A stretch of DNA of 64,000 bases from Candidatus Gorgyraea atricola (GTDB lineage: Bacteria; Omnitrophota; Gorgyraeia; Gorgyraeales; Gorgyraeaceae): positions 12,939-76,938 of the forward strand of contig JAVCCW010000029.1 in assembly GCA_030765235.1 (NCBI GenBank), in the 5' to 3' direction. Within the stretch, counting starts at the first letter, position 1. Each line of letters begins with the position of its first letter. The translations under genes and the position numbers were made by a program. Positions 3,069 through 64,000 of the stretch are shown here, in pieces. The notes beneath the pieces were generated by a model. It had not been told where the DNA came from and ran no database searches. It worked only from the letters and a program-made list of their open reading frames with translations.

Positions 3069-3113
3069 TATAAAAACAGAAAGCGTTTACAAGTGATTCA
3101 AAAGGAGAATACC

Positions 3114-6100
3114 ATGAAGAAATTATTCGCAATTATGCTTACAGTATCAATTAGCTTATTTCAAATAATGCCGGTTCTAGCTGAACCGGTTTTTTTATCT
3201 GATAAGGACATGGATAGTGTAGTGGCAGGCTACATTGAAGAAAACACCCTGACCATGACAGATGATAGCCAGCGCGATTTAAAAGCTCTTAGCAATGTAA
3301 ATGATGTTGACTCAGCAGTAGCAGCGCAGTCAAACGTCACGTTTGGCGGATTTGATGTGGAAAGTTACAACAGCGCCGCAGTAGAAAATAATGATGCGGA
3401 TCCAGGCATAACATTATTAGAAAGTATAGAATCTAATAATTCCCTTAGCCTAACTGATTTTGCGCAGGCTGAACTCCTTGCGCTCAGCAATGTAAACTCT
3501 GTTGACTCTGCAAACGCGGTCCAGTCCAATATCACAGTGTGCTCACAGTTTCCTTTGAGCGAAAATAAAGCAGACGTAGTTAACATAGATGCTGATAGCG
3601 AAGAAGAGATAGACGCCATTAACACCCTTTCACTCTCAGGCAGTGCTCAGACTTCACTGCATGCCCTTAGCAACCTTAACTCAGTAGACTCAGCAGTGGC
3701 AGTACAGTCGAATGCGAATTTCTGCGGAGAGAGCGTAGTAAATTCTAACATCGCTTGTGTAGATAATTTTAATGGTGATGCGGGTGATGTAGATACCTTG
3801 GATGATAACCCGCATTCACTCTCGATCATAGACAATGCACAGGAAAACCTGGCAGCATTCAGTAATGTCAATGCAGTTGACTCAGCTGTGTGCGTACAGC
3901 TCAATACCTCTATTAATATAAGAGAGGACGCCACTAACACAAATGACGGCTATGCCACGAATAACTCCACGCATCAGGCCAACTACATGGATCGCGACAA
4001 TGACCTTTATATAGCTGGCAATGGCCAGGCAGGCACAAGCGGCATTGTAAGCATAAACGCGGTAGACTCCGCGGAACTCGCGCAGGTAAACATTACAGTC
4101 TTCAGCGGCACAATAGGCGTGATGGACACAAACATCGTGCGCATAGTTTTAAATGATGACGGCGTTACATCAGGAACAGACTGGGATACTGACACCAACA
4201 CCATGACGCTCACTGGCAATGCTCAGCAGGGCCTTATAGCGCTCCACAATGAAAACCTCGTGGACTCAGCAGCCACCATAGAAGGAAACTACGGCGCGTT
4301 TGGCTACAATGACTTTAGATTCAACGAGGCCTATCTTATTAATAAAGACAAGGACTCCTATATATACGCGTCAGTCAATAGAATGGATCTTTCAGAAAAT
4401 GCCCAAAAGGATGTCCAGGTCGTAAGTAACCTGAACGCAGTAGACTCTGCGCCTGGCGTACAGACAAACATTACTTATGATGCGCACTGGGCCATTGGCG
4501 AAAACTATGCTGAGGCTACTAATAATGACGGCACATCCAGCTATTGGACTGATACAGATAATTCGCTTACCATGTCTGGCAGCGCACAGGAAGACTTAAC
4601 AGCGCTCACAAGCACAAACTCAGTTGACTCTGCGTCTATGGTGCAGACAAACCTATTTGCCTTAACTGCCAGTATGTCAACCGCTGTGAATGAAGCAACT
4701 ATCCTAAATACAGACGGCAGTGCCAATGGCGACTCCTGGGGCATAACCTATAATGTACTGGATCTCTCAGGAGATTCCCAGAGAGGCCTTGTAGCACAGA
4801 GTAATCTTAATGAAGTAGATTCAGCTACCTTGGTCCAAACCAATATTACTGCTGAAGAGGAGCAGGGTACACTTTCTGTAATAAGCTCCTCAAATACAGC
4901 AGACGTGGATAATCTTGATATAGTAACTGAGGATCAAAATGGCTTGCGTTCCTATAATAAGCTTACCATGACTGATAATACCCAGAGATCTTTACATGCC
5001 TTGAGCAATATAAATAGCGTTGATTCTGCTAGTGCTGTGCAGTCTAATCTAACAGTTAATAGCTCCCTGCCACCTATTGACTCAGAGCTAGTAGGGCTCG
5101 AGCTTACTGGTTATGCGCCTCTAGCGCCTATCCAGACTGAGATAGTAGCGCTTGAACTAGCTGGTTTTACTCCTGGCGATGATATTGAGATCGCCTTTCC
5201 TATGATCACAGGTATTGAGCTAAGTGATTATACAGAAATAGGAGACGACATAACCTCTACTAACATTGCTACAGTAGACAATATTGATGGTACAGCATAC
5301 TGGATGGATGTGCCTGAAGGCGAGATAATGAATCTTTTGAAACTCTCAGGCAATAGCCAGAGGAATCTCAGCGCGCTCTCAAATCTCAACACAGTTGATT
5401 CAGCCAATGCAGTCCAGATCAACATCGTATACGGAAATGGCGCAGGTATCGCGTCAAGCAACACTGCTACAGTAAAGAATGACGATGGCTCTACTAATTT
5501 TATGGGTTCACTAGAAGACGGCGGCGTGAGTGATGACACAAATAGGCTTAGACTTGTAGATAATGTACAGAGAAAACTCGAGGCATTAAGCAATGCCAAT
5601 ACAGTAGATTCAGCTACAGCAGTGCAGGCAAATCTCGCTGTAGGCGTATCAAGCTCTACGCAGACCAATACCGCGGATGTCTTAAATCAGGGTAGAGATA
5701 TCCTGGGAGAAGACATGACAGACCCGAAGAATCGCTTGACCTTAAAAGACAATGCACAGAGAGGACTAACTGCGCTAAGTAACCTTAACTCAGTTGACTC
5801 TGCTAACACAGTCCAGTCCAATATTACTATAAACAATACTGAAGGAGAAGCAGGAGGCATTACAAATGTGAGCGTGAACAAGACATATGCAGCGTTTGAT
5901 ATAGACTGCAGGATATCTCGCGAAAGACGTCATGCACCTGATATTGAACCTTGCGTTGACATCTCTTGCTGCCCTATATGGTATCTTGGAATAGAGTCAG
6001 AGCCTGGCACAAGAAACTATGGTAATGATGCAAAGAATACACTTAAGCTTGAAGGTGAGGCCCAGATGAAACTTACCGCGCTCAGTAACCTCAATGCTGT

Positions 6101-6965
6101 TTCCAGCGCCAGCGCAGTGCAGTCAAATATCACTGCGAATAAGATAGGTACAGTCACAGGCCCGATTGAAAATTTCAGCCTGAACATAGCTTCTGTTGAG
6201 AATATAACTGAAGATGGAGATAATACACTTAAGCTGCAAAACAAGGCCCAGAAAGACCTGTTAGCGCTCAGTAATGCTAATAGCGTTGACTCTGCCAATG
6301 CAGTGCAGTCGAATATCAGTATCAATGGCTCAGAAAATATCAGCATAAACAAGGCTGATGTGTATAATTCCAGCGGGGACAATCTCTGGCCAGAGAAGAA
6401 AACTGATAAGCTCACTATCAAAAACCACGCCCAGGAGGATCTAACTGCGCTCAGTAACCTTAATACAGTCTCATCAGCTAATGCAGTACAGTCTAACATT
6501 ACCGCGAATAATGTTACAGGCAGCGCCCTTAATGTAAGCGTGAACATTGCGCAGGTAAAAAATGCTCGCGGCACAGGTGAAAATAAACTCATACTTAAAA
6601 ACAAGGCGCAAAGAGGACTCACAGCTCTCAGCAACGTAAACTCTGTAGAAAGCGCAAATGCTGTGCAGTCCAACATCAGTGTCACCTCAACTGAGGATGT
6701 AGAAGCATGCGTTTCCAATATCAGCGCGAACTTCGCGAATGTCGAGAATAAAGATGAGGACGAAAATGAAGCGGATAAGCTCAATACCTTGAGCCTATCT
6801 AACCATGCGCAGCAGAATCTCATGGCACTCAGCAACTTAAATACAGTAAGCAGCGCAACAGCTGTGCAGTCCAACGCCGCGGTATCAAACGCTGCAGGTA
6901 TAAATATCAGCATGAACAATGCCCGAGTAGTTAACTCAGGCAGTTTTAACAACATAAGCGATTAA
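3114..6965 (+). CDS. Secreted giant repeat protein, paralog A: 18 copies of the repeat 'L-x-L-x-[DG]-x-AQ-x-x-L-x-ALSNLN-x-VDSANAVQSNIT', with a Cys-rich central module.
   Basis: RBS AAGGAG then ATG at 3114 (the ORF track's first Met at 3093 is probably upstream of the true start). Signal peptide MKKLFAIMLTVSISLFQIMPVLA. Repeats counted directly in the translation. Central module is 'CVDISCCPIWYLGIESEPGTRNYG'. Confidence 0.8.
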   Translation: MKKLFAIMLTVSISLFQIMPVLAEPVFLSDKDMDSVVAGYIEENTLTMTDDSQRDLKALSNVNDVDSAVAAQSNVTFGGFDVESYNSAAVENNDADPGITLLESIESNNSLSLTDFAQAELLALSNVNSVDSANAVQSNITVCSQFPLSENKADVVNIDADSEEEIDAINTLSLSGSAQTSLHALSNLNSVDSAVAVQSNANFCGESVVNSNIACVDNFNGDAGDVDTLDDNPHSLSIIDNAQENLAAFSNVNAVDSAVCVQLNTSINIREDATNTNDGYATNNSTHQANYMDRDNDLYIAGNGQAGTSGIVSINAVDSAELAQVNITVFSGTIGVMDTNIVRIVLNDDGVTSGTDWDTDTNTMTLTGNAQQGLIALHNENLVDSAATIEGNYGAFGYNDFRFNEAYLINKDKDSYIYASVNRMDLSENAQKDVQVVSNLNAVDSAPGVQTNITYDAHWAIGENYAEATNNDGTSSYWTDTDNSLTMSGSAQEDLTALTSTNSVDSASMVQTNLFALTASMSTAVNEATILNTDGSANGDSWGITYNVLDLSGDSQRGLVAQSNLNEVDSATLVQTNITAEEEQGTLSVISSSNTADVDNLDIVTEDQNGLRSYNKLTMTDNTQRSLHALSNINSVDSASAVQSNLTVNSSLPPIDSELVGLELTGYAPLAPIQTEIVALELAGFTPGDDIEIAFPMITGIELSDYTEIGDDITSTNIATVDNIDGTAYWMDVPEGEIMNLLKLSGNSQRNLSALSNLNTVDSANAVQINIVYGNGAGIASSNTATVKNDDGSTNFMGSLEDGGVSDDTNRLRLVDNVQRKLEALSNANTVDSATAVQANLAVGVSSSTQTNTADVLNQGRDILGEDMTDPKNRLTLKDNAQRGLTALSNLNSVDSANTVQSNITINNTEGEAGGITNVSVNKTYAAFDIDCRISRERRHAPDIEPCVDISCCPIWYLGIESEPGTRNYGNDAKNTLKLEGEAQMKLTALSNLNAVSSASAVQSNITANKIGTVTGPIENFSLNIASVENITEDGDNTLKLQNKAQKDLLALSNANSVDSANAVQSNISINGSENISINKADVYNSSGDNLWPEKKTDKLTIKNHAQEDLTALSNLNTVSSANAVQSNITANNVTGSALNVSVNIAQVKNARGTGENKLILKNKAQRGLTALSNVNSVESANAVQSNISVTSTEDVEACVSNISANFANVENKDEDENEADKLNTLSLSNHAQQNLMALSNLNTVSSATAVQSNAAVSNAAGINISMNNARVVNSGSFNNISD

Positions 6966-7011: not shown

Positions 7012-7152
7012 CGAAGCGAAGCAATCTCAATAACAGGACGTAAACTCCCTATACCAGGCCTAAAAAGGTGGCCTTTAACCACCAACATGGGAGAGAGGCC
7101 TTAAAATAGATCGGTGAAACATGGTGAAGTTAAAAACAAGGAGGAGAAAGTA

Positions 7153-10100
7153 ATGAGAAAGTTAGTATCGATTATCGCAGCTTTAAGTATCATTTTCTCA
7201 GGCGCTATTTCTCCAGTATTAGCAGCTGAAGTCCTGACAGACGAAGGCTTGGACTCTATTGTTGCAGGCGACCTTCCAGTCGGCGCTACTTTAGAGAACA
7301 ATACCTTAGATCTAAAAGAACAATCTCAGAGGTTCTTCAAAGGTCTAAGCAATGCAAATACTGTAGATTCAGCAAATGCAGTACAGTCAAACGTTACTAT
7401 GACAGGTGGCGGTCTGGCTGTAAGTATGAACGCAGCTGATGTTGACAACTTGGACGGTTTGAATGATGATTATTATGGCAGAGAGCAGAACAATGATCTG
7501 AAATTAAAAGATGATGCACAGAGCGGTTCATCAGGGTATCCACCAGCTGATGTTGGACAGGATTTCTTCGCAGCTTTGAGCAATCTCAACACTGTTGACT
7601 CTGCTAATGCTATCCAGTCAAACATCACTGCTGGTAATGATGACAAATTCAGCGGCAACAATGCTGATGTATTGAATGATGATGGTACGACTACTTGTCA
7701 CGTAGAGACTAACAATCTGATGATACTCAAAGACCAGGCACAGAATAGGCTTTGGGCACTCAGCAATGTTAACACAGTTGATTCAGCAAATGCTGTCCAG
7801 TCAAACATCACTGTGAATACAGGTGTTACTGGTGATAATGTAGCTGATGCTACAAGTCGTAACTGTGCTATAGTAGAGAATGCAGATGGCACATCAGTTG
7901 CAGAACCACTGCCAGAAACTGAACCTGCAAAACTGGTTAACAACAAGCTGGTCATAGACAATACTGCTCAGGCAGAACTCATGGCACTAAGCAACTTAAA
8001 CACAGTTGATTCTGCTAATGCAGTTCAGTCAAACATCAGTATTCATGGCGCAGATAATAACAATCAAAACCAGGCAGAGGTGCTTAATGAAGATGGTATA
8101 GCACCAACTGGTCAGAAGATTTTGAACAACACCTTAAAGATCAAGGATCAGGCACAGCATGATTTAATTGCACTCTCGAACTTGAATGCAGTTGATTCAG
8201 CAAGTGCTGTTCAGTCTAACATTACCTATGCTCATTGTAAAAACATCAATACTAACAAGGCTGATGTTGAGAACAATGATGGTGGAGTTGGAGTGGGTGT
8301 AGTAGATTCAAGCGGCAACCCAATGGATCCAGTAGTAGATAACAATGACGCACTTTCTCTTGGGACAAATGTCCAGGGTGGCCTTACTGCGCTTAGCAAT
8401 ATCAATTCAGTTGATTCTGCTAATGCAGTTCAGTCAAATATCACTGTTAATGACAGTGATTATGAAGGAACAGCAGGGCCAACAAAGGTGTTGAATATTA
8501 ACAAGAACATAGCTGGTGTTTTAAACACTGATGCTGATCCAGAGACAGATGGTGGAAATAATTCCATACTGCTCGGAGGCTTAGCTCAGAGCGGACTTAT
8601 GGCACTCAGCAATATTAATACCATTGATTCTGCTAACACAGTCCAGTCCAATGTCACTGTAAATAATACAGTTGGCGATGTTGGAGAGATTCACAACATA
8701 AGTAAGAATGAGGCCTTTGCATCATTTGACCTTTACTACCATGGTGGTTGCTGTGGCGGAAATGGTATAGATGATGGCGGATGTGTTGACATTAACTGTC
8801 CACCAATAAGTTGCATAGGTATAATTTCTGAACCTTGCACAAAGAACTATGCAGGTGATGGGAATAATATCCTTACACTTGAGGGTAGTGCACAGATTGG
8901 CTTAATGGCACTAAGTAACCTCACAGCTGTTTCCAGTGCAAGCGTTATACAATCCAACATTACTGCCAATGGTATTGGTAAGGAAGATGATGGATCTGGA
9001 ACAATGGTTGGAAGCGCAAATAATGTCAGAAACTTCAGTGAGAACATAGCTTCTGTTTGGAATTCTAGTGGAACAGGAGACAATACTCTTGAGTTAATGG
9101 ACAATGCACAGCAAGGTCTTTGTGCGCTCAGCAATGTTAACACAGTTGATTCAGCAAATGTTGTTCAGTCAAATATTACTGTAACAGCAGATGATGTGAA
9201 TCTTTGTGCTGAAGTTGGCTGGAATGTGGACTTTGATCGGCTTGTTTTAGGTCTTTGCCCGCAGGGCGACTCATTACTTGCTATTCAGTATCCTGATCTA
9301 GGAGAAATAGGACCAGATCTCTTAGGTGCTCTTAACAATAACATGTTTACATCTGCCACTATCAATGGTTTTGCACCTGATACAGAAAGCTGGATTTTCT
9401 TCAGGAGTTCATTAGGCAATCCGTCATGGGTCAATTGCTTAAAGCATATGTTTAAAGGTAAAGCGCTTTTAAACTACAGCATGAACGCAGCTGATGTCTA
9501 TGATGCAAGCGGTGACTCTCCGGAAGACAGTACAACTGATTTACTTACCATTGAAGTCAGCGCTCAGAAAAATCTAAGCGCATTGAGCAATCTCAACACA
9601 GTTGGTTCTGCAAATGCAGTTCAGTCAAATATAACTGTAAACTGGGTTGGCGGTGAGCTTAACAATGGACTTGTCAGCATCAATGCAAATCTTGCTAAAG
9701 TCCAAAATGCTGCTGGTATTGGAGAAAATAAGATGAAGCTAGCAGGCAGTGCCCAGGAAGAGCTAACAGCATTGAGTAATCTTAACACGGTTGAAAGCGC
9801 AAATGCAGTTCAGTCCAACGTCACACTTACCAGGGCATCAGGCGCAAGCGAAACATGCTTTGGTTGTGAAGGTGCTGCAATGGCATGTACTTTCAATTTG
9901 AATTCTGCTGAGGTTAGAAATTATGATAAGGTTAGAGATGTTGTTCAAGAAACTCCTATAGATGTACCTGATAGGGTTAATTCTTTGAAACTATCTGGTA
10001 TGGCACAGCAAAACCTTATCGCATTAAGTAACCTTAATGCAGTAAATTCAGCAACAGCTGTTCAGTCAAACATAACAGTGAGCAGCGGCATAGGCATGAA

Positions 10101-10155
10101 TGTTAGTGTCAATACCGCATGCGTATCAAACGTAGGTAGAAGTTTTGCAGATTAA
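7153..10155 (+). CDS. Secreted giant repeat protein, paralog B: 12 copies of the same ALSNLNTVDSANAVQSNIT-type repeat, with a Cys-rich central module.
   Basis: RBS AAGGAGG then ATG at 7153. Signal peptide MRKLVSIIAALSIIFSGAISPVLA. N-terminal motif 'LTDEGLDSIVAG' is shared with paralog A ('LSDKDMDSVVAG'). Module 'CVDINCPPISCIGIISEPCTKNYAG' is homologous to that of paralog A. Confidence 0.8.
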   Translation: MRKLVSIIAALSIIFSGAISPVLAAEVLTDEGLDSIVAGDLPVGATLENNTLDLKEQSQRFFKGLSNANTVDSANAVQSNVTMTGGGLAVSMNAADVDNLDGLNDDYYGREQNNDLKLKDDAQSGSSGYPPADVGQDFFAALSNLNTVDSANAIQSNITAGNDDKFSGNNADVLNDDGTTTCHVETNNLMILKDQAQNRLWALSNVNTVDSANAVQSNITVNTGVTGDNVADATSRNCAIVENADGTSVAEPLPETEPAKLVNNKLVIDNTAQAELMALSNLNTVDSANAVQSNISIHGADNNNQNQAEVLNEDGIAPTGQKILNNTLKIKDQAQHDLIALSNLNAVDSASAVQSNITYAHCKNINTNKADVENNDGGVGVGVVDSSGNPMDPVVDNNDALSLGTNVQGGLTALSNINSVDSANAVQSNITVNDSDYEGTAGPTKVLNINKNIAGVLNTDADPETDGGNNSILLGGLAQSGLMALSNINTIDSANTVQSNVTVNNTVGDVGEIHNISKNEAFASFDLYYHGGCCGGNGIDDGGCVDINCPPISCIGIISEPCTKNYAGDGNNILTLEGSAQIGLMALSNLTAVSSASVIQSNITANGIGKEDDGSGTMVGSANNVRNFSENIASVWNSSGTGDNTLELMDNAQQGLCALSNVNTVDSANVVQSNITVTADDVNLCAEVGWNVDFDRLVLGLCPQGDSLLAIQYPDLGEIGPDLLGALNNNMFTSATINGFAPDTESWIFFRSSLGNPSWVNCLKHMFKGKALLNYSMNAADVYDASGDSPEDSTTDLLTIEVSAQKNLSALSNLNTVGSANAVQSNITVNWVGGELNNGLVSINANLAKVQNAAGIGENKMKLAGSAQEELTALSNLNTVESANAVQSNVTLTRASGASETCFGCEGAAMACTFNLNSAEVRNYDKVRDVVQETPIDVPDRVNSLKLSGMAQQNLIALSNLNAVNSATAVQSNITVSSGIGMNVSVNTACVSNVGRSFAD

Positions 10156-13051: not shown

Positions 13052-13098
13052 AAAAAAGCCGAGGCTGGACCTCGGCCATTGGCCGAGGTCCAGCCTCG
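13052..13098. terminator. Large A-tract-flanked palindrome: two inverted copies of the GCCGAGG-CTGGA-CCTCGGC hairpin. Likely a bidirectional terminator.
   Basis: AAAAAAAGCCGAGGCTGGACCTCGGCCATTGGCCGAGGTCCAGCCTCG. The same hairpin recurs inside leuS at 62150-62180. Confidence 0.55.
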
Positions 13099-13136
13099 AA
13101 AGTTTAAACCCGGGCTACAGCTTTACACTCGTGCAA

Positions 13137-39515: not shown

Positions 39516-40928
39516 ATGTTAAAAGAAAAGGACCAACTTTTTAGAAAATTATTAATACTGTCAGATGTGGCCACTATCTGCGTCTCATTCTTTATTGCTT
39601 ATGCATTGAGACAGAATATAGAGGTGCTTGGAGAACTCTATTCTCCGTCTAAATATCTGAATATACTGGCCCTGGTCTTATTTTCATGGATGTTCGCATT
39701 GCGTTCCACAGGCCTATATGAATCTTTAAGGAGAGAGAATCTATTCGGGATAACGAGTCGTATAATAAAAAGCGCCTTTTTTGTTATGGTGATATCTATA
39801 GGCGCGATATTTATTTTTAAGATGGAATTTGTGAGCAGGACCTTTATATTAAGCCTGCTTCTTGTGACGAGTTTATTTTTGATATTCGAGCGATGGATCG
39901 TAATATCCTCTTTGAGATTTTTTAGGAAAAAGGGTTATAATTTTAGAAATATTTTAGTAGTGGGCACAGGGCCCAGGGCAAAGAATTTTATAGAACTTGT
40001 TCACAGGCATGATGAGTGGGGTCTGAGGATCATAGGTATAATAGACGCTGAGAAAAAGATGCTGGGAAAGACTGTAGCCGGGGAAAAGGTAATAGGACTT
40101 CTAAAGGATATACCAAAGATACTTATTGAAAATGTAGTAGATGAGGCGATGTTTGTAATACCCAGGAAGTGGATACCTATTATAGAAGAAAGTCTTTTGG
40201 CCTGTGAGTTGCAGGGCGTTAAGACCAATCTTGCCGCTGATTTTTTTAACATGAAGATATCAAGCTGGAGCTCCGGCGAGGTCGGAGGCGTACCTACTCT
40301 GGGCTTTCAGACAACAGTTGGTGAAGAATGGCAATTGTTAGTTAAAAGGTTATCTGATATACTATTATCGTTAGCAGGTATGGCGATCACCCTGCCTATT
40401 TTGATAGGAGTAGGTATCGCTATAAAGATTTTTTCGCGAGGGCCTGCGATATTTAAGCAAATAAGAAGCGGCCTTAATGGCAGAAAGTTTGTGATGTATA
40501 AATTCAGGACTATGGTGGATGGCGCAGAAAATGGGATAGACGCGCTTCGCGCCAATAATGAAATGGCCGGGCCTGTATTTAAGATGCGCAAAGATCCACG
40601 TGTCACAAGATTTGGCGAATTTTTACGCAGGTCTAGTCTGGATGAACTACCACAGCTTTTTAATGTATTGAAGGGCGAGATGTCTATAGTAGGCCCGAGA
40701 CCTCCTATACCTAGAGAAGTGGAGAAATACCAGATCTGGCAGAGAAGGCGTCTTAGCATGAAACCAGGACTTACGTGTTTGTGGCAGATAAATGGACGCA
40801 ATAATGTAGACTTTGACGAATGGATGAAGCTGGATTTAGAATATATAGATAATTGGTCATTGAGATTGGATCTGAAGATCTTATTAAAAACAGTACCCGC
40901 GGTGATTTTTTCAGTAGGCGCGAGGTAA
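39516..40928 (+). CDS. Undecaprenyl-phosphate sugar phosphotransferase (WbaP/EpsB-like priming glycosyltransferase).
   Basis: Five N-terminal transmembrane segments and C-terminal 'DELPQLFNVLKGEMSIVGPRP'. Confidence 0.85.
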   Translation: MLKEKDQLFRKLLILSDVATICVSFFIAYALRQNIEVLGELYSPSKYLNILALVLFSWMFALRSTGLYESLRRENLFGITSRIIKSAFFVMVISIGAIFIFKMEFVSRTFILSLLLVTSLFLIFERWIVISSLRFFRKKGYNFRNILVVGTGPRAKNFIELVHRHDEWGLRIIGIIDAEKKMLGKTVAGEKVIGLLKDIPKILIENVVDEAMFVIPRKWIPIIEESLLACELQGVKTNLAADFFNMKISSWSSGEVGGVPTLGFQTTVGEEWQLLVKRLSDILLSLAGMAITLPILIGVGIAIKIFSRGPAIFKQIRSGLNGRKFVMYKFRTMVDGAENGIDALRANNEMAGPVFKMRKDPRVTRFGEFLRRSSLDELPQLFNVLKGEMSIVGPRPPIPREVEKYQIWQRRRLSMKPGLTCLWQINGRNNVDFDEWMKLDLEYIDNWSLRLDLKILLKTVPAVIFSVGAR

Positions 40929-60999: not shown

Positions 61000-61072
61000 T
61001 TGACCCGTTACCCGTTTTGCCCGTTAACGGGCAAAACGGGTAAACGGACTAAACGGGTAACGGAAATTGCCG
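61000..61072. repeat. About 70-nt imperfect palindrome between accA and tRNA-Leu.
   Basis: GTTTAGCCCGTT ... CCCGTTTTGCCCGTTAACGGGCAAAACGGG ... AACGGACTAAAC. Confidence 0.4.
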
Positions 61073-61156
61073 GAGTGGCGGAACTGGCTGACGCGCACGA
61101 CTCAAAATCGTGTGAGGCAACCCCTCGTGTGGGTTCGACTCCCACCTCCGGCACCA
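61069..61156 (+). tRNA. tRNA-Leu (anticodon CAA), class II with a long variable arm; CCA encoded.
   Basis: Acceptor GCCGGAG/CTCCGGC. Anticodon stem CACGA/TCGTG with loop CTCAAAA. T-loop GGTTCGACTCC. Confidence 0.8.
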
Positions 61157-61279
61157 TGAACCACTCGCTAAGAATACTACTTTTAGTTGCGTATTCGCTC
61201 GGGTTCATGGCAGGCCATCAGATACTGGGGCGTGCCCCGTTCCAAATTGCCCGATTTTAAGAATGGGGCAATTTGGAAT

Positions 61280-61353
61280 GGGGCTGTAGTGAAGCGGGAT
61301 CACACGACAATGGCATTGTCGCATCACGGGTTCGATTCCCGTCAGCTCCACCA
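61280..61353 (+). tRNA. tRNA-Ala (anticodon GGC); CCA encoded.
   Basis: Acceptor GGGGCTG/CAGCTCC with the G3:U70 identity pair. Anticodon stem CGACA/TGTCG with loop ATGGCAT. T-arm ACGGG-TTCGATT-CCCGT. Confidence 0.7.
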
Positions 61354-61440: not shown

Positions 61441-63969
61441 ATGAGTGAATTTTATCCGTTTAAGAAAATTGAGAAGAAGTGGCAGAAGGCGTGGGAGAAG
61501 AAGGGTCTTTTTAAGATGGACCCTAAGTCTTCTAAGGAAAAATACTATTGCCTCATGATGTTTCCGTATCCGTCTGCATCTCTGCATGTAGGACATGGCA
61601 GGAACTACATCATAGGTGATGTTGTAGCGCGTTATAAGATCATGCATAAGCTCAATGTCCTGGCGCCAATGGGCTGGGATGCATTTGGCCTTCCTGCAGA
61701 AAATGCTGCTATAAAGAGCGGCATCCATCCTAAGACTTCCACATTGAATAATATAAAGACAATGAAAAAGCAACTCGATGCCTGGGGCGTGGGTTATGAC
61801 TGGGATAGAGAGATTGCTTCGTGCATGCCTGACTATTACAAATGGACACAGTGGATATTTTTAGAGCTCTATAAAAAAGGTCTTGCCTATAAGAAAAAAG
61901 CCCAGGTCAACTGGTGTCCTTCCTGCCAAACGGTGCTTGCAAATGAGCAGGTCGTGGATGGCGCGTGCGAGAGATGCTCATCAGAGGTCGAACTGCGCAG
62001 CCTGGAGCAATGGTTTTTAAAGATCACTGATTACGCGCAAAGGCTTCTGGATGATCTGAGTCTTTTAAAGGATTGGCCAGAGCGTGTAAGGATCATGCAG
62101 AAGAACTGGATAGGCAGGAGCGAGGGCGTTGAGATAGATTTCAAGCTTGAAAAAAGCCGAGGTCCAGCCTCGGCTTTTTTGAGCTGTTTTACCACAAGGG
62201 TGGATACGATTTATGGCGCTACATATATGGTGCTTGCTGCAGAGCATCCAATGGTCGAGGAATTAGTAAAGAGTTCCAGTAAAGAAAAAGACATAAAGAA
62301 ATTCATCGCAGATGTTAAAAAAGAGAGTTTTACAGACAGGGTCTCAGCTACGACTGAGAAAAAAGGCATATTTACAGGCCGCTATGTTATAAATCCTGTG
62401 AATAATAAAAAGATCCCGCTCTGGATCTCGAATTATGTACTCATGGAATATGGCACTGGCGCAGTAATGGCAGTGCCTGCGCATGATGAAAGGGATTTTG
62501 AATTTGCGAAAAAGTATGATCTAGATATAGTGGTCGTGATCGATGATCCAAAAGAACATCTTGATGTAAAGACTATGAAAGAAGCCTTTGTTGAAGAAGG
62601 CGTAATGGTAAATTCTGATCAATTCAATGACCTGCCAAGCCTTAAGGCAATTGAAAAAATCGCAGACTACATGGAAAAAGAAGAGATCGGCAGGAGAAAG
62701 ATCCATTATAAGCTGCGGGACTGGCTCATCTCCAGGCAGAGATACTGGGGCGCGCCTATACCTATAGTGTATTGTGAAAAATGTGGCATACAGGCAGTGG
62801 ACGAGAAAGACCTGCCAGTTCTTTTGCCTGAAAAAGTTGAATTCAAGCCTCATGGCGAGTCACCTCTAAAACAAGCCAAGGGTTTTGTCAATGCAAAATG
62901 CCCTAAGTGTAAATCAAAAGCTCGACGAGAAATCGATACAATGGACACATTCGTGGACTCGAGCTGGTATTTTCTTAGATTCTTATCGTCAAAAGACAAC
63001 AAAAGACCTTTTGATAAAGAATTAATCAATAAGTGGCTTCCTGTAGATCAATATATAGGTGGCGTAGAGCATGCTATTCTGCATTTAATGTATTCAAGAT
63101 TTATTGTAAAGGTACTTTATGATTTGGGTCATGTAGGTTTTAAAGAACCATTCGCCAAACTCTTTACACAGGGCATGATCGTAAAAGATGGCGCAAAGAT
63201 GTCCAAGTCAAAAGGCAATGTAGTAAGTCCTGACGCGCTCATAGAAAAATACGGCGCAGACACAGTGAGACTTTATACATTGTTCATTGGTCCACCTGAG
63301 AAGGATGCAGAGTGGAATGACCGAGGAGTAGAGGGAGCGTGGAGATTTCTTAATCGGGTGTGGAGGCTTGTGGAAGGGACAAGGGACAAGGGACCCCATA
63401 CGAGAATCAAAGATTTCGTACGGGGCAGGCAAGGGACAAGGGATGAAGGCTTAAGACGAAGAACTCATCTTACTATTAAAAAAGTTACAGAAGATATGGA
63501 AGGGTCGTTTCATTTTAATACAGCGCTCAGTGCGATAATGGAGTTAGTGAATGAGATCTATAAAGTCAGGGACAAGGGACCCCATACGAGAATCAAAGAT
63601 TTCGTACGGGGCAGGCAAGGGACAAGAGACAAGGGGTATGGACTTGCCGTAGAGACTGTGATAATTCTTCTTGCGCCATTCGTGCCGCATGTTGCTGAAG
63701 AGATGTGGGAGAGGTTGGGGAATAAGAAAAGCGTGTTTGAAGCAGAGTGGCCAGGATATGACGAGGCTGCGCTTGCTCAGGACAAGATTACTATGCCAGT
63801 GCAGATAAATGGCAGGGTGCGCTCAAAAATAGAAGTAGCATCAAGCGCAGGTGATGAAGATATTAAAAGAATTGTGCTTGAAGATCCTGGAATAAATAAA
63901 TGGACTCAAGGTAAAGCGCCCAAGAAGATTATTGTTGTAAAAGGGAGATTAGTGAATCTTGTGGTATAA
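61441..63969 (+). CDS. leuS: Leucyl-tRNA synthetase carrying in-frame palindromic insertions.
   Basis: 'HVGHGRNY' HIGH motif, 'KMSKSKGN' KMSKS motif, editing-domain 'TTRVDTIYGATYMVLAAEHP'. Start at the internal ATG at 61441 (the ORF track starts at 61399). Confidence 0.9.
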   Translation: MSEFYPFKKIEKKWQKAWEKKGLFKMDPKSSKEKYYCLMMFPYPSASLHVGHGRNYIIGDVVARYKIMHKLNVLAPMGWDAFGLPAENAAIKSGIHPKTSTLNNIKTMKKQLDAWGVGYDWDREIASCMPDYYKWTQWIFLELYKKGLAYKKKAQVNWCPSCQTVLANEQVVDGACERCSSEVELRSLEQWFLKITDYAQRLLDDLSLLKDWPERVRIMQKNWIGRSEGVEIDFKLEKSRGPASAFLSCFTTRVDTIYGATYMVLAAEHPMVEELVKSSSKEKDIKKFIADVKKESFTDRVSATTEKKGIFTGRYVINPVNNKKIPLWISNYVLMEYGTGAVMAVPAHDERDFEFAKKYDLDIVVVIDDPKEHLDVKTMKEAFVEEGVMVNSDQFNDLPSLKAIEKIADYMEKEEIGRRKIHYKLRDWLISRQRYWGAPIPIVYCEKCGIQAVDEKDLPVLLPEKVEFKPHGESPLKQAKGFVNAKCPKCKSKARREIDTMDTFVDSSWYFLRFLSSKDNKRPFDKELINKWLPVDQYIGGVEHAILHLMYSRFIVKVLYDLGHVGFKEPFAKLFTQGMIVKDGAKMSKSKGNVVSPDALIEKYGADTVRLYTLFIGPPEKDAEWNDRGVEGAWRFLNRVWRLVEGTRDKGPHTRIKDFVRGRQGTRDEGLRRRTHLTIKKVTEDMEGSFHFNTALSAIMELVNEIYKVRDKGPHTRIKDFVRGRQGTRDKGYGLAVETVIILLAPFVPHVAEEMWERLGNKKSVFEAEWPGYDEAALAQDKITMPVQINGRVRSKIEVASSAGDEDIKRIVLEDPGINKWTQGKAPKKIIVVKGRLVNLVV
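62150..62180. repeat. Terminator-like hairpin element A6-GCCGAGG-TCCAG-CCTCGGC-T6, embedded in-frame in leuS.
   Basis: Reverse-complement-identical to one arm of the intergenic palindrome at 13052-13098. Encodes 'EKSRGPASAFLS'. Confidence 0.6.
63375..63443. repeat. About 60-nt palindromic element, copy 1, in-frame in leuS (encodes 'TRDKGPHTRIKDFVRGRQGTRD').
   Basis: AGGGACAAGGGACCCCATACGAGAATCAAAGATTTCGTACGGGGCAGGCAAGGGACAAG. Hairpin CCCCATACG/CGTACGGGG. Confidence 0.65.
63569..63636. repeat. About 60-nt palindromic element, copy 2, in-frame in leuS, about 190 nt downstream of copy 1.
   Basis: Near-identical direct repeat of 63375-63443. Confidence 0.65.
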
Positions 63970-64000
63970 TTGTTCTATGTTAAGAAAAATAGTTATTGTT

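Follow-up and report, generated by a model that had tools for sequence, protein, structure and literature searches.

How did the leucine–tRNA ligase gene (leuS) of Candidatus Gorgyraea atricola come to carry, in one reading frame, two almost identical copies of a short hairpin-bearing repeat? The gene occupies positions 61441–63969 (plus strand) of a 64,000-nt stretch of contig JAVCCW010000029.1, referred to here as the window, and encodes a leucine–tRNA ligase (LeuRS) of 842 aa (842 codons) that matches the NCBIfam model TIGR00396 leuS_bact at 1099.8 bits. In a homolog search, the closest LeuRS relatives of this protein were all from Omnitrophota. The evidence assembled here makes it quite likely that the repeats are copies of a dispersed family of mini-elements with heptamer arms, adapted to residence in coding sequence, and the family is apparently undescribed.

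A repeat search of leuS recovered a 62-nt direct repeat at 63382–63443 and 63568–63629, identical at 61 of 62 positions. The copies start 186 nt apart, a multiple of three, and so share a frame; they are translated within the leuS ORF as ...TRDKGPHTRIKDFVRGRQGTRD... and ...RDKGPHTRIKDFVRGRQGTRDK... A pattern built on the 51-nt core had two exact matches in the 64-kb window and none in 100 shuffles. The two in-frame copies of about 60 nt described in the initial annotation are thus borne out. An independently assembled JGI contig, L084 (Ga0075122_10018864; L-numbers denote the compared loci and contigs), is 100% identical to window positions 62663–64000 (1338 nt) with both copies included, and the duplication is therefore real and no artefact of assembly. 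Each copy is a composite unit, and the parts are as follows, with helices numbered by residue in an AlphaFold2 (AF2) model of the protein.

63374–63443, plus strand: element copy 1, whole unit (70 nt), in the loop between AF2 helices 627–648 and 666–687
63374–63394, plus strand: left heptamer array of copy 1, AAGGGAC three times (CAAGGGA phase; TRF: period 7, 3.0 copies, 100% matches)
63394–63425, plus strand: hairpin core of copy 1, with arm CCCCATACGAGAATC, loop AAA and arm GATTTCGTACGGGG, from sequence and folding
63424–63433, plus strand: conserved family tail of copy 1, GGCAGGCAAG, a 10-mer that takes the same place 3′ of the hairpin at 120 or more metagenome loci and in L003, L011 and L016
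63430–63443, plus strand: right heptamers of copy 1, CAAGGGA twice, from sequence
63444–63567, plus strand: native LeuRS coding segment between the elements (…LRRRTHLTIKKVTEDMEGSFHFNTALSAIMELVNEIYKV), outside both, recognized by ortholog conservation
63568–63636, plus strand: element copy 2, whole unit (69 nt), between AF2 helices 692–711 and 731–744
63568–63580, plus strand: left array of copy 2, AGGGAC AAGGGAC, from sequence
63580–63611, plus strand: hairpin of copy 2, from sequence
63610–63619, plus strand: tail of copy 2, GGCAGGCAAG, from sequence
63616–63636, plus strand: right heptamers of copy 2, CAAGGGA CAAGAGA CAAGGGG, from sequence

Both copies contain the imperfect hairpin that had been proposed, 32 nt in length, and their heptamers number three on the left and two on the right in copy 1, and two and three in copy 2. 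For sense-strand RNA of the copies, the predicted folding energies are −15 to −17 kcal/mol, with z from −2.4 to −3.2; for antisense-strand RNA, the values are −19.6 kcal/mol and z −5.5. The 'AGGGACAAG' flanks, which the initial annotation took for a target-like duplication, are in fact the tandem array AAGGGAC ×3 at 63374–63394, a part of the element itself. Elsewhere in the window, a short array of GGGCACA (2.7 copies, 39962–39980, within the ORF at 39516–40928) resembles the GGGACAA heptamer and has neither hairpin nor tail; it may be the footprint of a decayed element, or the likeness may be due to chance.

Work with other contigs of similar GC content showed that this DNA is found well outside leuS. 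Copies of the window-type core, CCCCATACGA[G/A]AATCAAAGATTTCGTACGGGG, accompanied by GGGACAA heptamers, are present at 92–100% identity in a gene for a SPOR-domain protein (L150), as a tandem doublet in a dihydroorotate dehydrogenase (DHODH) gene (L155), in a gene for a ferredoxin-domain (Fer4) protein (L183) and on L193. This core is read as DKGPHTRIKDFVRGRQ in leuS, as TRDPIRKSKISYGAGK in the SPOR protein and DHODH and as QGTPYENQRFRTGQARDK in the Fer4 protein, which together make use of three frames. Dispersed near-identical copies of this kind are the pattern expected of a mobile or homogenized repeat.

The wider family was sought in public metagenome contigs with the pattern CAAGNNNCCCN{4,30}GGGCAGGCAAGNNNCAAG, which matched at least 120 stretches (at least 125 matches) against about one or two expected by chance, the latter figure being our own estimate; the same pattern had zero matches in 2.9 million viral contigs (IMG/VR). 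Counts and averages given below for the family refer to the matches listed, which fall into 113 unique contexts. Read 5′ to 3′ along the coding strand, the units share the plan [CAAGNNN]n - CCC(C)…hairpin…(G)GGG - CAGGCAAG - [CAAGNNN]n, or in short form CAAGNNN heptamers, a GC-clamped hairpin, GGGCAGGCAAG and CAAGNNN heptamers again. One to four heptamers stand on the left and two to five on the right, with an NNN that is lineage-specific and equal on both flanks. Units are about 45–80 nt long (mean 59 nt).

Most of these copies reside in genes. In 75 of the 113 contexts, the element lies in a same-strand frame that stays open for 120 nt or more on either side; in 5, the open frame is on the opposite strand, and in several of the seemingly unspanned contexts the element has been inserted into an N-terminal leader. 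Pfam matches of the 69 host ORFs cover 129 families, and hosts include Leu-, Ile-, Val-, Pro- and Cys-tRNA ligases (class I and class II), GatB, NAD-dependent DNA ligase (LigA), KsgA, phosphoglucomutase (PGM), MurB, TsaE and EPSP synthase (AroA). The 75 intragenic copies use the three frames 26, 17 and 32 times. Host contigs span 35 to 69% GC and include Omnitrophota, as the LeuS hosts, and members of the Candidate Phyla Radiation (CPR)/Parcubacteria; the latter is illustrated by L122 (35% GC), where the named alanine–tRNA ligase (AlaRS) matches are to Nealsonbacteria and Gribaldobacteria at 55–56% identity. On that contig (L122:228-2298), two neighboring type IV pilin-like genes have elements in the N-terminal leader (…FPQRSRFATLRGRQVSSFKTGFTIIELL…), immediately upstream of the prepilin cleavage/hydrophobic segment. 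An EPSP synthase gene on the minus strand of L123 (4372-5754) holds two copies of one variant about 460 nt apart in two frames, giving QVTLRLRSGQASHK and TSHPSASLRAGKSQV. GC skew, oriented by the element, is positive in 79 of 102 flanks; since the genes are co-oriented, skew cannot separate a replication-strand bias from a coding-strand bias.

The sequences of the elements appear well fitted to being translated. Among 109 unique elements, 62% are free of stop codons in all three sense frames, compared with 16% of shuffles and 19% of antisense readings. The mean Kyte–Doolittle hydropathy is −1.22 for sense peptides, which are rich in R, Q, S, K, A, G and P, versus +0.54 for antisense peptides, which contain 20% Leu and 7% Cys; this difference between hydrophilic sense and hydrophobic antisense products could alone explain the orientation bias. 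Core lengths tell a similar story. Boundaries of the heptamer arrays are too fuzzy for a test of total length modulo 3, and core-length classes were used instead: lengths are multiples of three in 96 of 105 unique matches (classes of 42, 45, 48, 51, 54 and 57), and such 3-nt steps are a signature of long-term evolution under reading-frame constraint. Taken together, the stop-free sense frames, hydrophilic peptides and 3-nt core steps make the element suited to life inside coding genes.

The hairpin is conserved as a structure as well. In the commonest class, with a core of 23 nt, 91.8% of cells are paired and compensatory changes occur (pair 7-26 as GC, CG, AU and UA; pair 15-18 as CG in 16 and UA in 12), and the covariation score of this class was reached by 0 of 500 shuffles, with slid controls scoring far lower. 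In the orthologous pair L141/L145, whose flanks are about 96% identical, a 7-nt indel to the left of the core is matched by an opposite 7-nt indel to its right, so that the host frame is kept and the core frame is shifted, giving SKLPACAKALAGRQ in one and PPALKLRRAGK in the other. The two window copies repeat this pattern, with three left and two right heptamers in copy 1 and the reverse in copy 2.

What the two leuS loops contain (loop 1 and loop 2, after the copies that they hold in the window) varies from lineage to lineage. A collection of genome contigs scanned for LeuS relatives gave a best match of 78% identity to the window. In the closest ortholog of all, L001 (P0001, 89.7% nt identity), both elements are missing and the loops are short (ERSSETQNPN and KLDDKVDKK), as the alignment suggested in the initial annotation was meant to reveal. 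L003 (P0004, 76% nt identity) has a near-identical pair of its own (44/45) in the same two loops, with GCGACAA heptamers. Its unit, AGCGACA(A/G)GCGAC-CCCTCGACCTTGCTCGGG-GCAGGCAAGCGACA, differs from that of the window in both heptamer and core, and the two cores have nothing in common beyond a CCCC/GGGG clamp. Related units are found in loop 2 of L016 and of L206; loop 1 of L011 has two in tandem, loop 2 of L205 has three tandem units of 33 nt, and L207 has one core in both loops, in sense orientation in loop 1 and in antisense in loop 2. The tail is read as RGRQ in the window and in L003 loop 2, as AGK in L016 and L003 loop 1 and as GQA in L011, L205 and L206. In 1.01 Mb of LeuS loci plus the window, this 10-mer occurs 9 times, 7 of them in leuS loops.

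Other loops hold arrays with no core, namely loop 1 of L007 and loop 1 of L016. In L204:409-2880 (P0003, a LeuRS 87% identical), loop 1 has (GAGTTCG)x4 and loop 2 has (CGAACTC)x4-5, arrays that form perfect inverted repeats about 130 nt apart around the conserved segment, are not of the CAAGNNN type and lack a hairpin core. These array-only loops of L007, L016 and L204 look like footprints after core loss. When tested against shuffles, the two loops of a gene prove significantly related to one another in direct orientation in the window, L003 and L016 and in inverted orientation in L005, L009, L011 and L012; in outgroup LeuRS genes their relatedness is about that of chance. The concern that orthologs might share the segments with divergent DNA is justified in part, as L003, L016, L011, L206 and L207 have related, lineage-specific variants in the same loops. 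This means that the sites are recurrent or persistent and that simple one-off insertions are insufficient. A single ProRS site with different variants in L136 and L191 makes a parallel case, and such sites recur or persist while the cassette turns over, perhaps through re-insertion into arrays or through gene conversion between them.

A number of observations weigh against a coding-adapted, dispersing mini-element or limit the case for it. The same sites are filled in several lineages (both leuS loops in the window, L003, L016, L011, L206 and L207; ProRS in L136 and L191), and such shared occupancy can be explained equally well by repeated transposition and by long residence accompanied by concerted evolution or gene conversion. 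When the window is compared with L001, the elements stand in place of loop sequence, and no insertion with target duplication is seen; nor was a mobilizing enzyme, a transposition intermediate or a clean empty/filled-site junction found in the loci examined. Density is low, with about 10 further element-like copies (15 further GGCAGGCAAG) in 781 kb beyond the seeded copy. Some of the window-type contigs come from the same metagenome series as the window, and given this and their similar GC, L150, L155, L183 and L193 are likely to be from the genome of the window. Some of the spanning ORFs in GC-rich contigs may be spurious, and one such host ORF, on L093, had no homolog in the search and is probably spurious. 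Translation of the elements within host proteins is suggested by open frames and 3-nt quantization of length.

The rival that best withstands the data builds on several of these points. It holds that the two leuS loops were colonized once, long ago, in an ancestor of this Omnitrophota clade, that no transposition is ongoing, that gene conversion or template switching between arrays keeps the copies within a genome alike and that the nearest relative lost its elements by slippage between the direct repeats on either side. It would account for the same two loops being filled in at least seven lineages, each with its own variant, for the deletion-like appearance of the array-only loops (loop 1 in L007 and in L016, both loops in L204), for the identical ProRS site with different variants and for the finding that the two copies in the window, and the two in L003, are more alike than copies elsewhere. 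However, the mismatch between the cores of the window and L003 indicates a cassette that was replaced rather than one that diverged in place, near-identical window-type cores sit in unrelated genes, and a family that spans Omnitrophota, CPR/Parcubacteria and 35 to 69% GC requires spread to new sites and genomes. We regard the single colonization as possible and less likely than a dispersing family; it overlaps with the latter, as it disputes the mode of copying and not the identity of the element.

A role specific to leuS is far less probable. Here, the paired hairpins, or inverted arrays around the conserved 130-nt segment, would serve as an mRNA element for translation, decay or co-translational folding, and the covariation of the hairpin, the covarying of the two loops within genomes and the inverted loops of L204, L009, L011 and L012, which could form a long stem round the conserved segment, are all in its favor. 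Yet the identical element type occurs in dozens of unrelated genes, the closest ortholog does without it, the loops are in direct orientation in some lineages and inverted in others, and Rfam has no match. Most likely, the element is selfish or neutral rather than the bearer of a leuS-specific function.

It is slightly harder still to credit that the elements go untranslated, being cut from the mRNA or hopped over with the heptamers as take-off and landing sites. Direct repeats that flank a hairpin do resemble known bypass cassettes. Against this, 75 of 80 intragenic contexts keep one open frame through the element with at least 120 nt on both sides, core lengths move in 3-nt steps and a 7-nt indel on one side is offset on the other, none of which would be needed if the segment were skipped. 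A −1 frameshift cassette, with a slippery heptamer ahead of a hairpin, was also considered and set aside, as the heptamers do not follow the X XXY YYZ pattern.

The location of the copies in LeuRS bears on a fourth possibility, that a useful peptide was copied at the protein level. Pfam Anticodon_1 covers residues 670–803, which puts copy 1 just ahead of the domain and copy 2 within it. The AF2 model has a mean pLDDT of 72, and in this region values fall below 50 only at residues 650–665 and 714–729, the two loops between the confident helices 627–648/666–687 and 692–711/731–744. In an alignment of the 40 closest proteins, these are two hypervariable loops around the conserved sequence LRRKTHLTIKKVTEDMEGxFHFNTALSAIMELVNEIY; the inter-element segment is highly conserved in those 40 orthologs and has several invariant positions in the 53-sequence alignment A3. 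Solved LeuRS structures (6Q89/7NUA and 4AQ7) have segments of variable length at the corresponding places, and mapping onto model and structures thus places both segments in inter-helix surface loops. The statement that each copy adds about 20 aa holds as far as the gain is concerned, with about 16 extra residues in one loop and about 19 in the other relative to L001; it fails as a description of plain addition, because short native loops were replaced and distant LeuRS structures were already variable there. Judging from an intact ORF and the presence of all conserved motifs, LeuRS with both inserts very probably stays functional.

Duplication of a useful peptide of about 22 aa (for example, a basic tRNA-contacting loop) would fit with the shared frame and identical basic peptides of the two window copies. 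But the two DNA copies of L003 are in different frames and encode DPSTLLGAGKRQ and RPLDLARGRQAT, which excludes duplication at the level of the protein; window-type DNA encodes three different peptides in other genes, the conserved 10-mer is used in all three frames, and both segments are predicted by AF2 to be disordered. The frame data effectively refute this idea, and we give it very little weight. An assembly artefact, through repeat-induced duplication or a chimera, is the least credible of all, for although assemblers can be confused by short exact repeats 186 nt apart, L084 matches without a difference over 1338 nt with both copies, the leuS ORF is intact with conserved LeuRS between the copies, and comparable pairs exist in other assemblies (L003 and L123).

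If the repeats are members of a coding-adapted family, to which known elements are they closest? Rickettsia palindromic elements (RPEs), to which the initial annotation likened them, are described in the account consulted (Ogata et al. 2000, via PMC10969869) as being about 100–150 bp long, found in Rickettsia only, with one conserved peptide in one frame for each family. The likeness is considerable, both being short, palindrome-bearing dispersed repeats that often lie in frame in unrelated housekeeping genes, are translated (apparently so in the leuS family) and occupy fold-compatible positions. Judged by that description, the differences lie in size (a leuS unit of 69–70 nt with a 32-nt hairpin, versus a long palindrome across an RPE) and in frame (three for the leuS family versus one for the conserved RPE peptide). 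Architecture and hosts also differ, with heptamer array, hairpin, GGGCAGGCAAG and heptamer array in Omnitrophota, CPR/Parcubacteria and others. With a host in Omnitrophota, RPE membership is implausible, the two being set apart here by description. "RPE-like" thus stands for nucleotide-level repeats in frame in housekeeping genes, with apparent read-through, absence from L001 and near-identical copies in other genes; as a family assignment it does not, on grounds of size, phylum and architecture.

MITEs (miniature transposable elements with inverted repeats; Correia/NEMIS, ERIC, RUP and others) have terminal inverted repeats and target-site duplications (PMC10969869). They are likewise small non-autonomous repeats that sometimes form in-frame fusions with host ORFs (PMC10969869). 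The leuS element differs in being bounded on both sides by direct heptamer arrays of one orientation, and its inverted repeat is internal. In the flanks of five window-type copies, no host-derived target duplication was found, the repeated flank being the heptamer of the element. The earlier reading as a MITE must accordingly be given up: the element lacks terminal inverted repeats, host target sequence is not duplicated, and the CAAGNNN arrays are lineage-specific and travel with the core.

Repetitive extragenic palindromic sequences (REPs) and REPINs are extragenic, have a GTAG or CGTC head beside a palindrome of 20–40 nt and are associated with REP-associated tyrosine transposases (RAYTs) of the Y1/HUH type (PMC3116915, PMC3733652). 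They share with the leuS element a short GC-rich hairpin with an adjacent conserved motif, the lack of terminal inverted repeats and target duplication and the existence of lineage-specific variants. Unlike them, the leuS element has no GTAG/CGTC head, has a 3′ GGGCAGGCAAG tail and heptamer arms and is mostly intragenic. In the window itself, a separate REP-like palindrome of 26 nt, GTAGGCCAGGTTTAAACCTGGCCTAC, bearing a GTAG head on both strands, is present ten times, in each case between genes and immediately 3′ of a stop codon; these copies have the appearance of canonical REPs tagged with GTAG, or of terminators.

10178, 10671, 11434, 13137, 17280, 41532, 51868, 55031, 55063 and 56655 (window positions): copies of GTAGGCCAGGTTTAAACCTGGCCTAC

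A 166-aa Y1 transposase (Pfam Y1_Tnp) is encoded at L001:17245-17745 on the minus strand, about 5 kb downstream of leuS and beyond the point where the window ends. Its best NCBIfam match is REP-associated tyrosine transposase at 70 bits, below the cutoff of 80, and it is not flanked by the leuS element; it is possible that it mobilizes the GTAG REPs.

Covariance models of Rfam gave no match at E ≤ 1 in window positions 63300–63700. Readings as a diversity-generating retroelement (DGR), attC site, CRISPR, ribozyme or intron were rejected, with no supporting feature seen and Rfam negative. No description of the family turned up in the full-text literature searched, a result limited to that library that does not prove novelty.

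Cyanobacteria offer a parallel in form. Elhai and colleagues reportedly described, in 2008, short tandemly repeated repetitive (STRR) heptamer arrays together with small dispersed repeats (SDRs; hairpins of about 20–30 nt) that are apparently mobile and mostly intergenic. These combine a small hairpin repeat with tandem heptamer arrays, nested or adjacent, much like the leuS family, and are not known to have a GGGCAGGCAAG tail or to follow the CAAGNNN rule. Nor is an all-frame adaptation to translation known to have been described for them. STRR/SDR would be the nearest architectural analogue, and should be taken as a lead. Tiny GC-rich hairpins with short identical flanks are also spread within coding genes as the GC clusters of yeast mitochondria and the "byp" elements of Magnusiomyces, which, like the hop in T4 gene 60, are bypassed or organelle-borne; the frame and length statistics of the leuS family instead point to read-through translation in bacteria.

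A second kind of palindrome in leuS had been counted as a third insertion of the same sort. It proves to be separate, a terminator-like perfect palindrome, AAAAAAGCCGAGGtccagCCTCGGCTTTTTT, at 62150–62180, in frame at the start of the editing domain, where it swaps the usual 9-aa turn (xADSDIxLx) for LEKSRGPASAFLS. The sister contigs L001 and L002 carry an identical version, and L003 and most other orthologs lack it; RNA of this palindrome is predicted to fold at −26.8 kcal/mol (z −5.3), and the same palindrome occurs twice, inverted, in the intergenic stretch 13058–13100 right after a stop codon. Two further palindromes, at 61005–61063 and 61234–61284, have an internal periodicity of 8–9 nt (AAACGGGT units) and a 23-bp hairpin and flank two tRNA genes.

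61069–61156: tRNA-Leu(CAA)
61280–61353: tRNA-Ala(GGC)

The region of the latter reaches 43.1 bits as tmRNA in Rfam, short of the gathering score (47), and probably reflects only a tRNA-Ala-like fold. Far from leuS, two very large ORFs at 3093–6965 and 7114–10155 (1290 and 1013 aa) are made up of a repeat of about 183–230 nt (…LxALSNxNxVDSANAVQSNIT…), present in about 21 diverged copies, and probably encode a giant repetitive surface protein.

To return to the coding-adapted mini-element, a few simple properties may account for its behavior. Its sense peptides would be tolerated as disordered surface loops, and the two leuS copies occupy naturally variable inter-helix loops at and inside the anticodon-binding helical bundle. 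Since a heptamer of 7 nt equals 1 modulo 3, gain or loss of heptamers by slippage could restore the frame after insertion and slide the core between frames. The flanking arrays could also supply the homology arms or landing pads used in copying, in loss (leaving an array-only footprint) and in replacement of the cassette, and such array-mediated replacement would explain the lineage-specific variants in the same loops. Dispersal to new genes would require either template switching or a trans-acting activity on the hairpin and conserved tail, for which an enzyme of the HUH/Y1 type that acts on single-stranded DNA hairpins is our leading, and still tentative, guess.

In its broadest form, the proposal is of a cross-phylum, undescribed class of coding-adapted selfish mini-elements (in at least Omnitrophota and CPR/Parcubacteria), stop-free and hydrophilic in all sense frames, with 7-nt arms that tune the frame and serve as landing pads, moved by an activity that recognizes the hairpin and GGGCAGGCAAG. 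Loops would be recolonized by the current variant of each genome, and the class would be a major overlooked source of low-complexity insertions in the housekeeping proteins of uncultivated ultra-small bacteria. The chances of this whole picture being right seem to us about even. If the coding-adapted family holds up, in-frame colonization of essential genes by tiny repeats would be widespread in uncultivated lineages, beyond the RPEs of Rickettsia, and would follow a distinct design in which one DNA element is tolerated in any reading frame. It would also provide a mechanism for lineage-specific disordered loops in conserved enzymes, including aminoacyl-tRNA synthetases, GatB, DNA ligase and AroA. 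Such segments would be non-homologous noise in alignments, and would call for caution in annotation and phylogenetics. The signature itself, CAAGNNN arrays with hairpin and GGGCAGGCAAG, would be usable in the search for the enzyme by phylogenetic profiling and for tracking presence and absence at the strain level in metagenomes.

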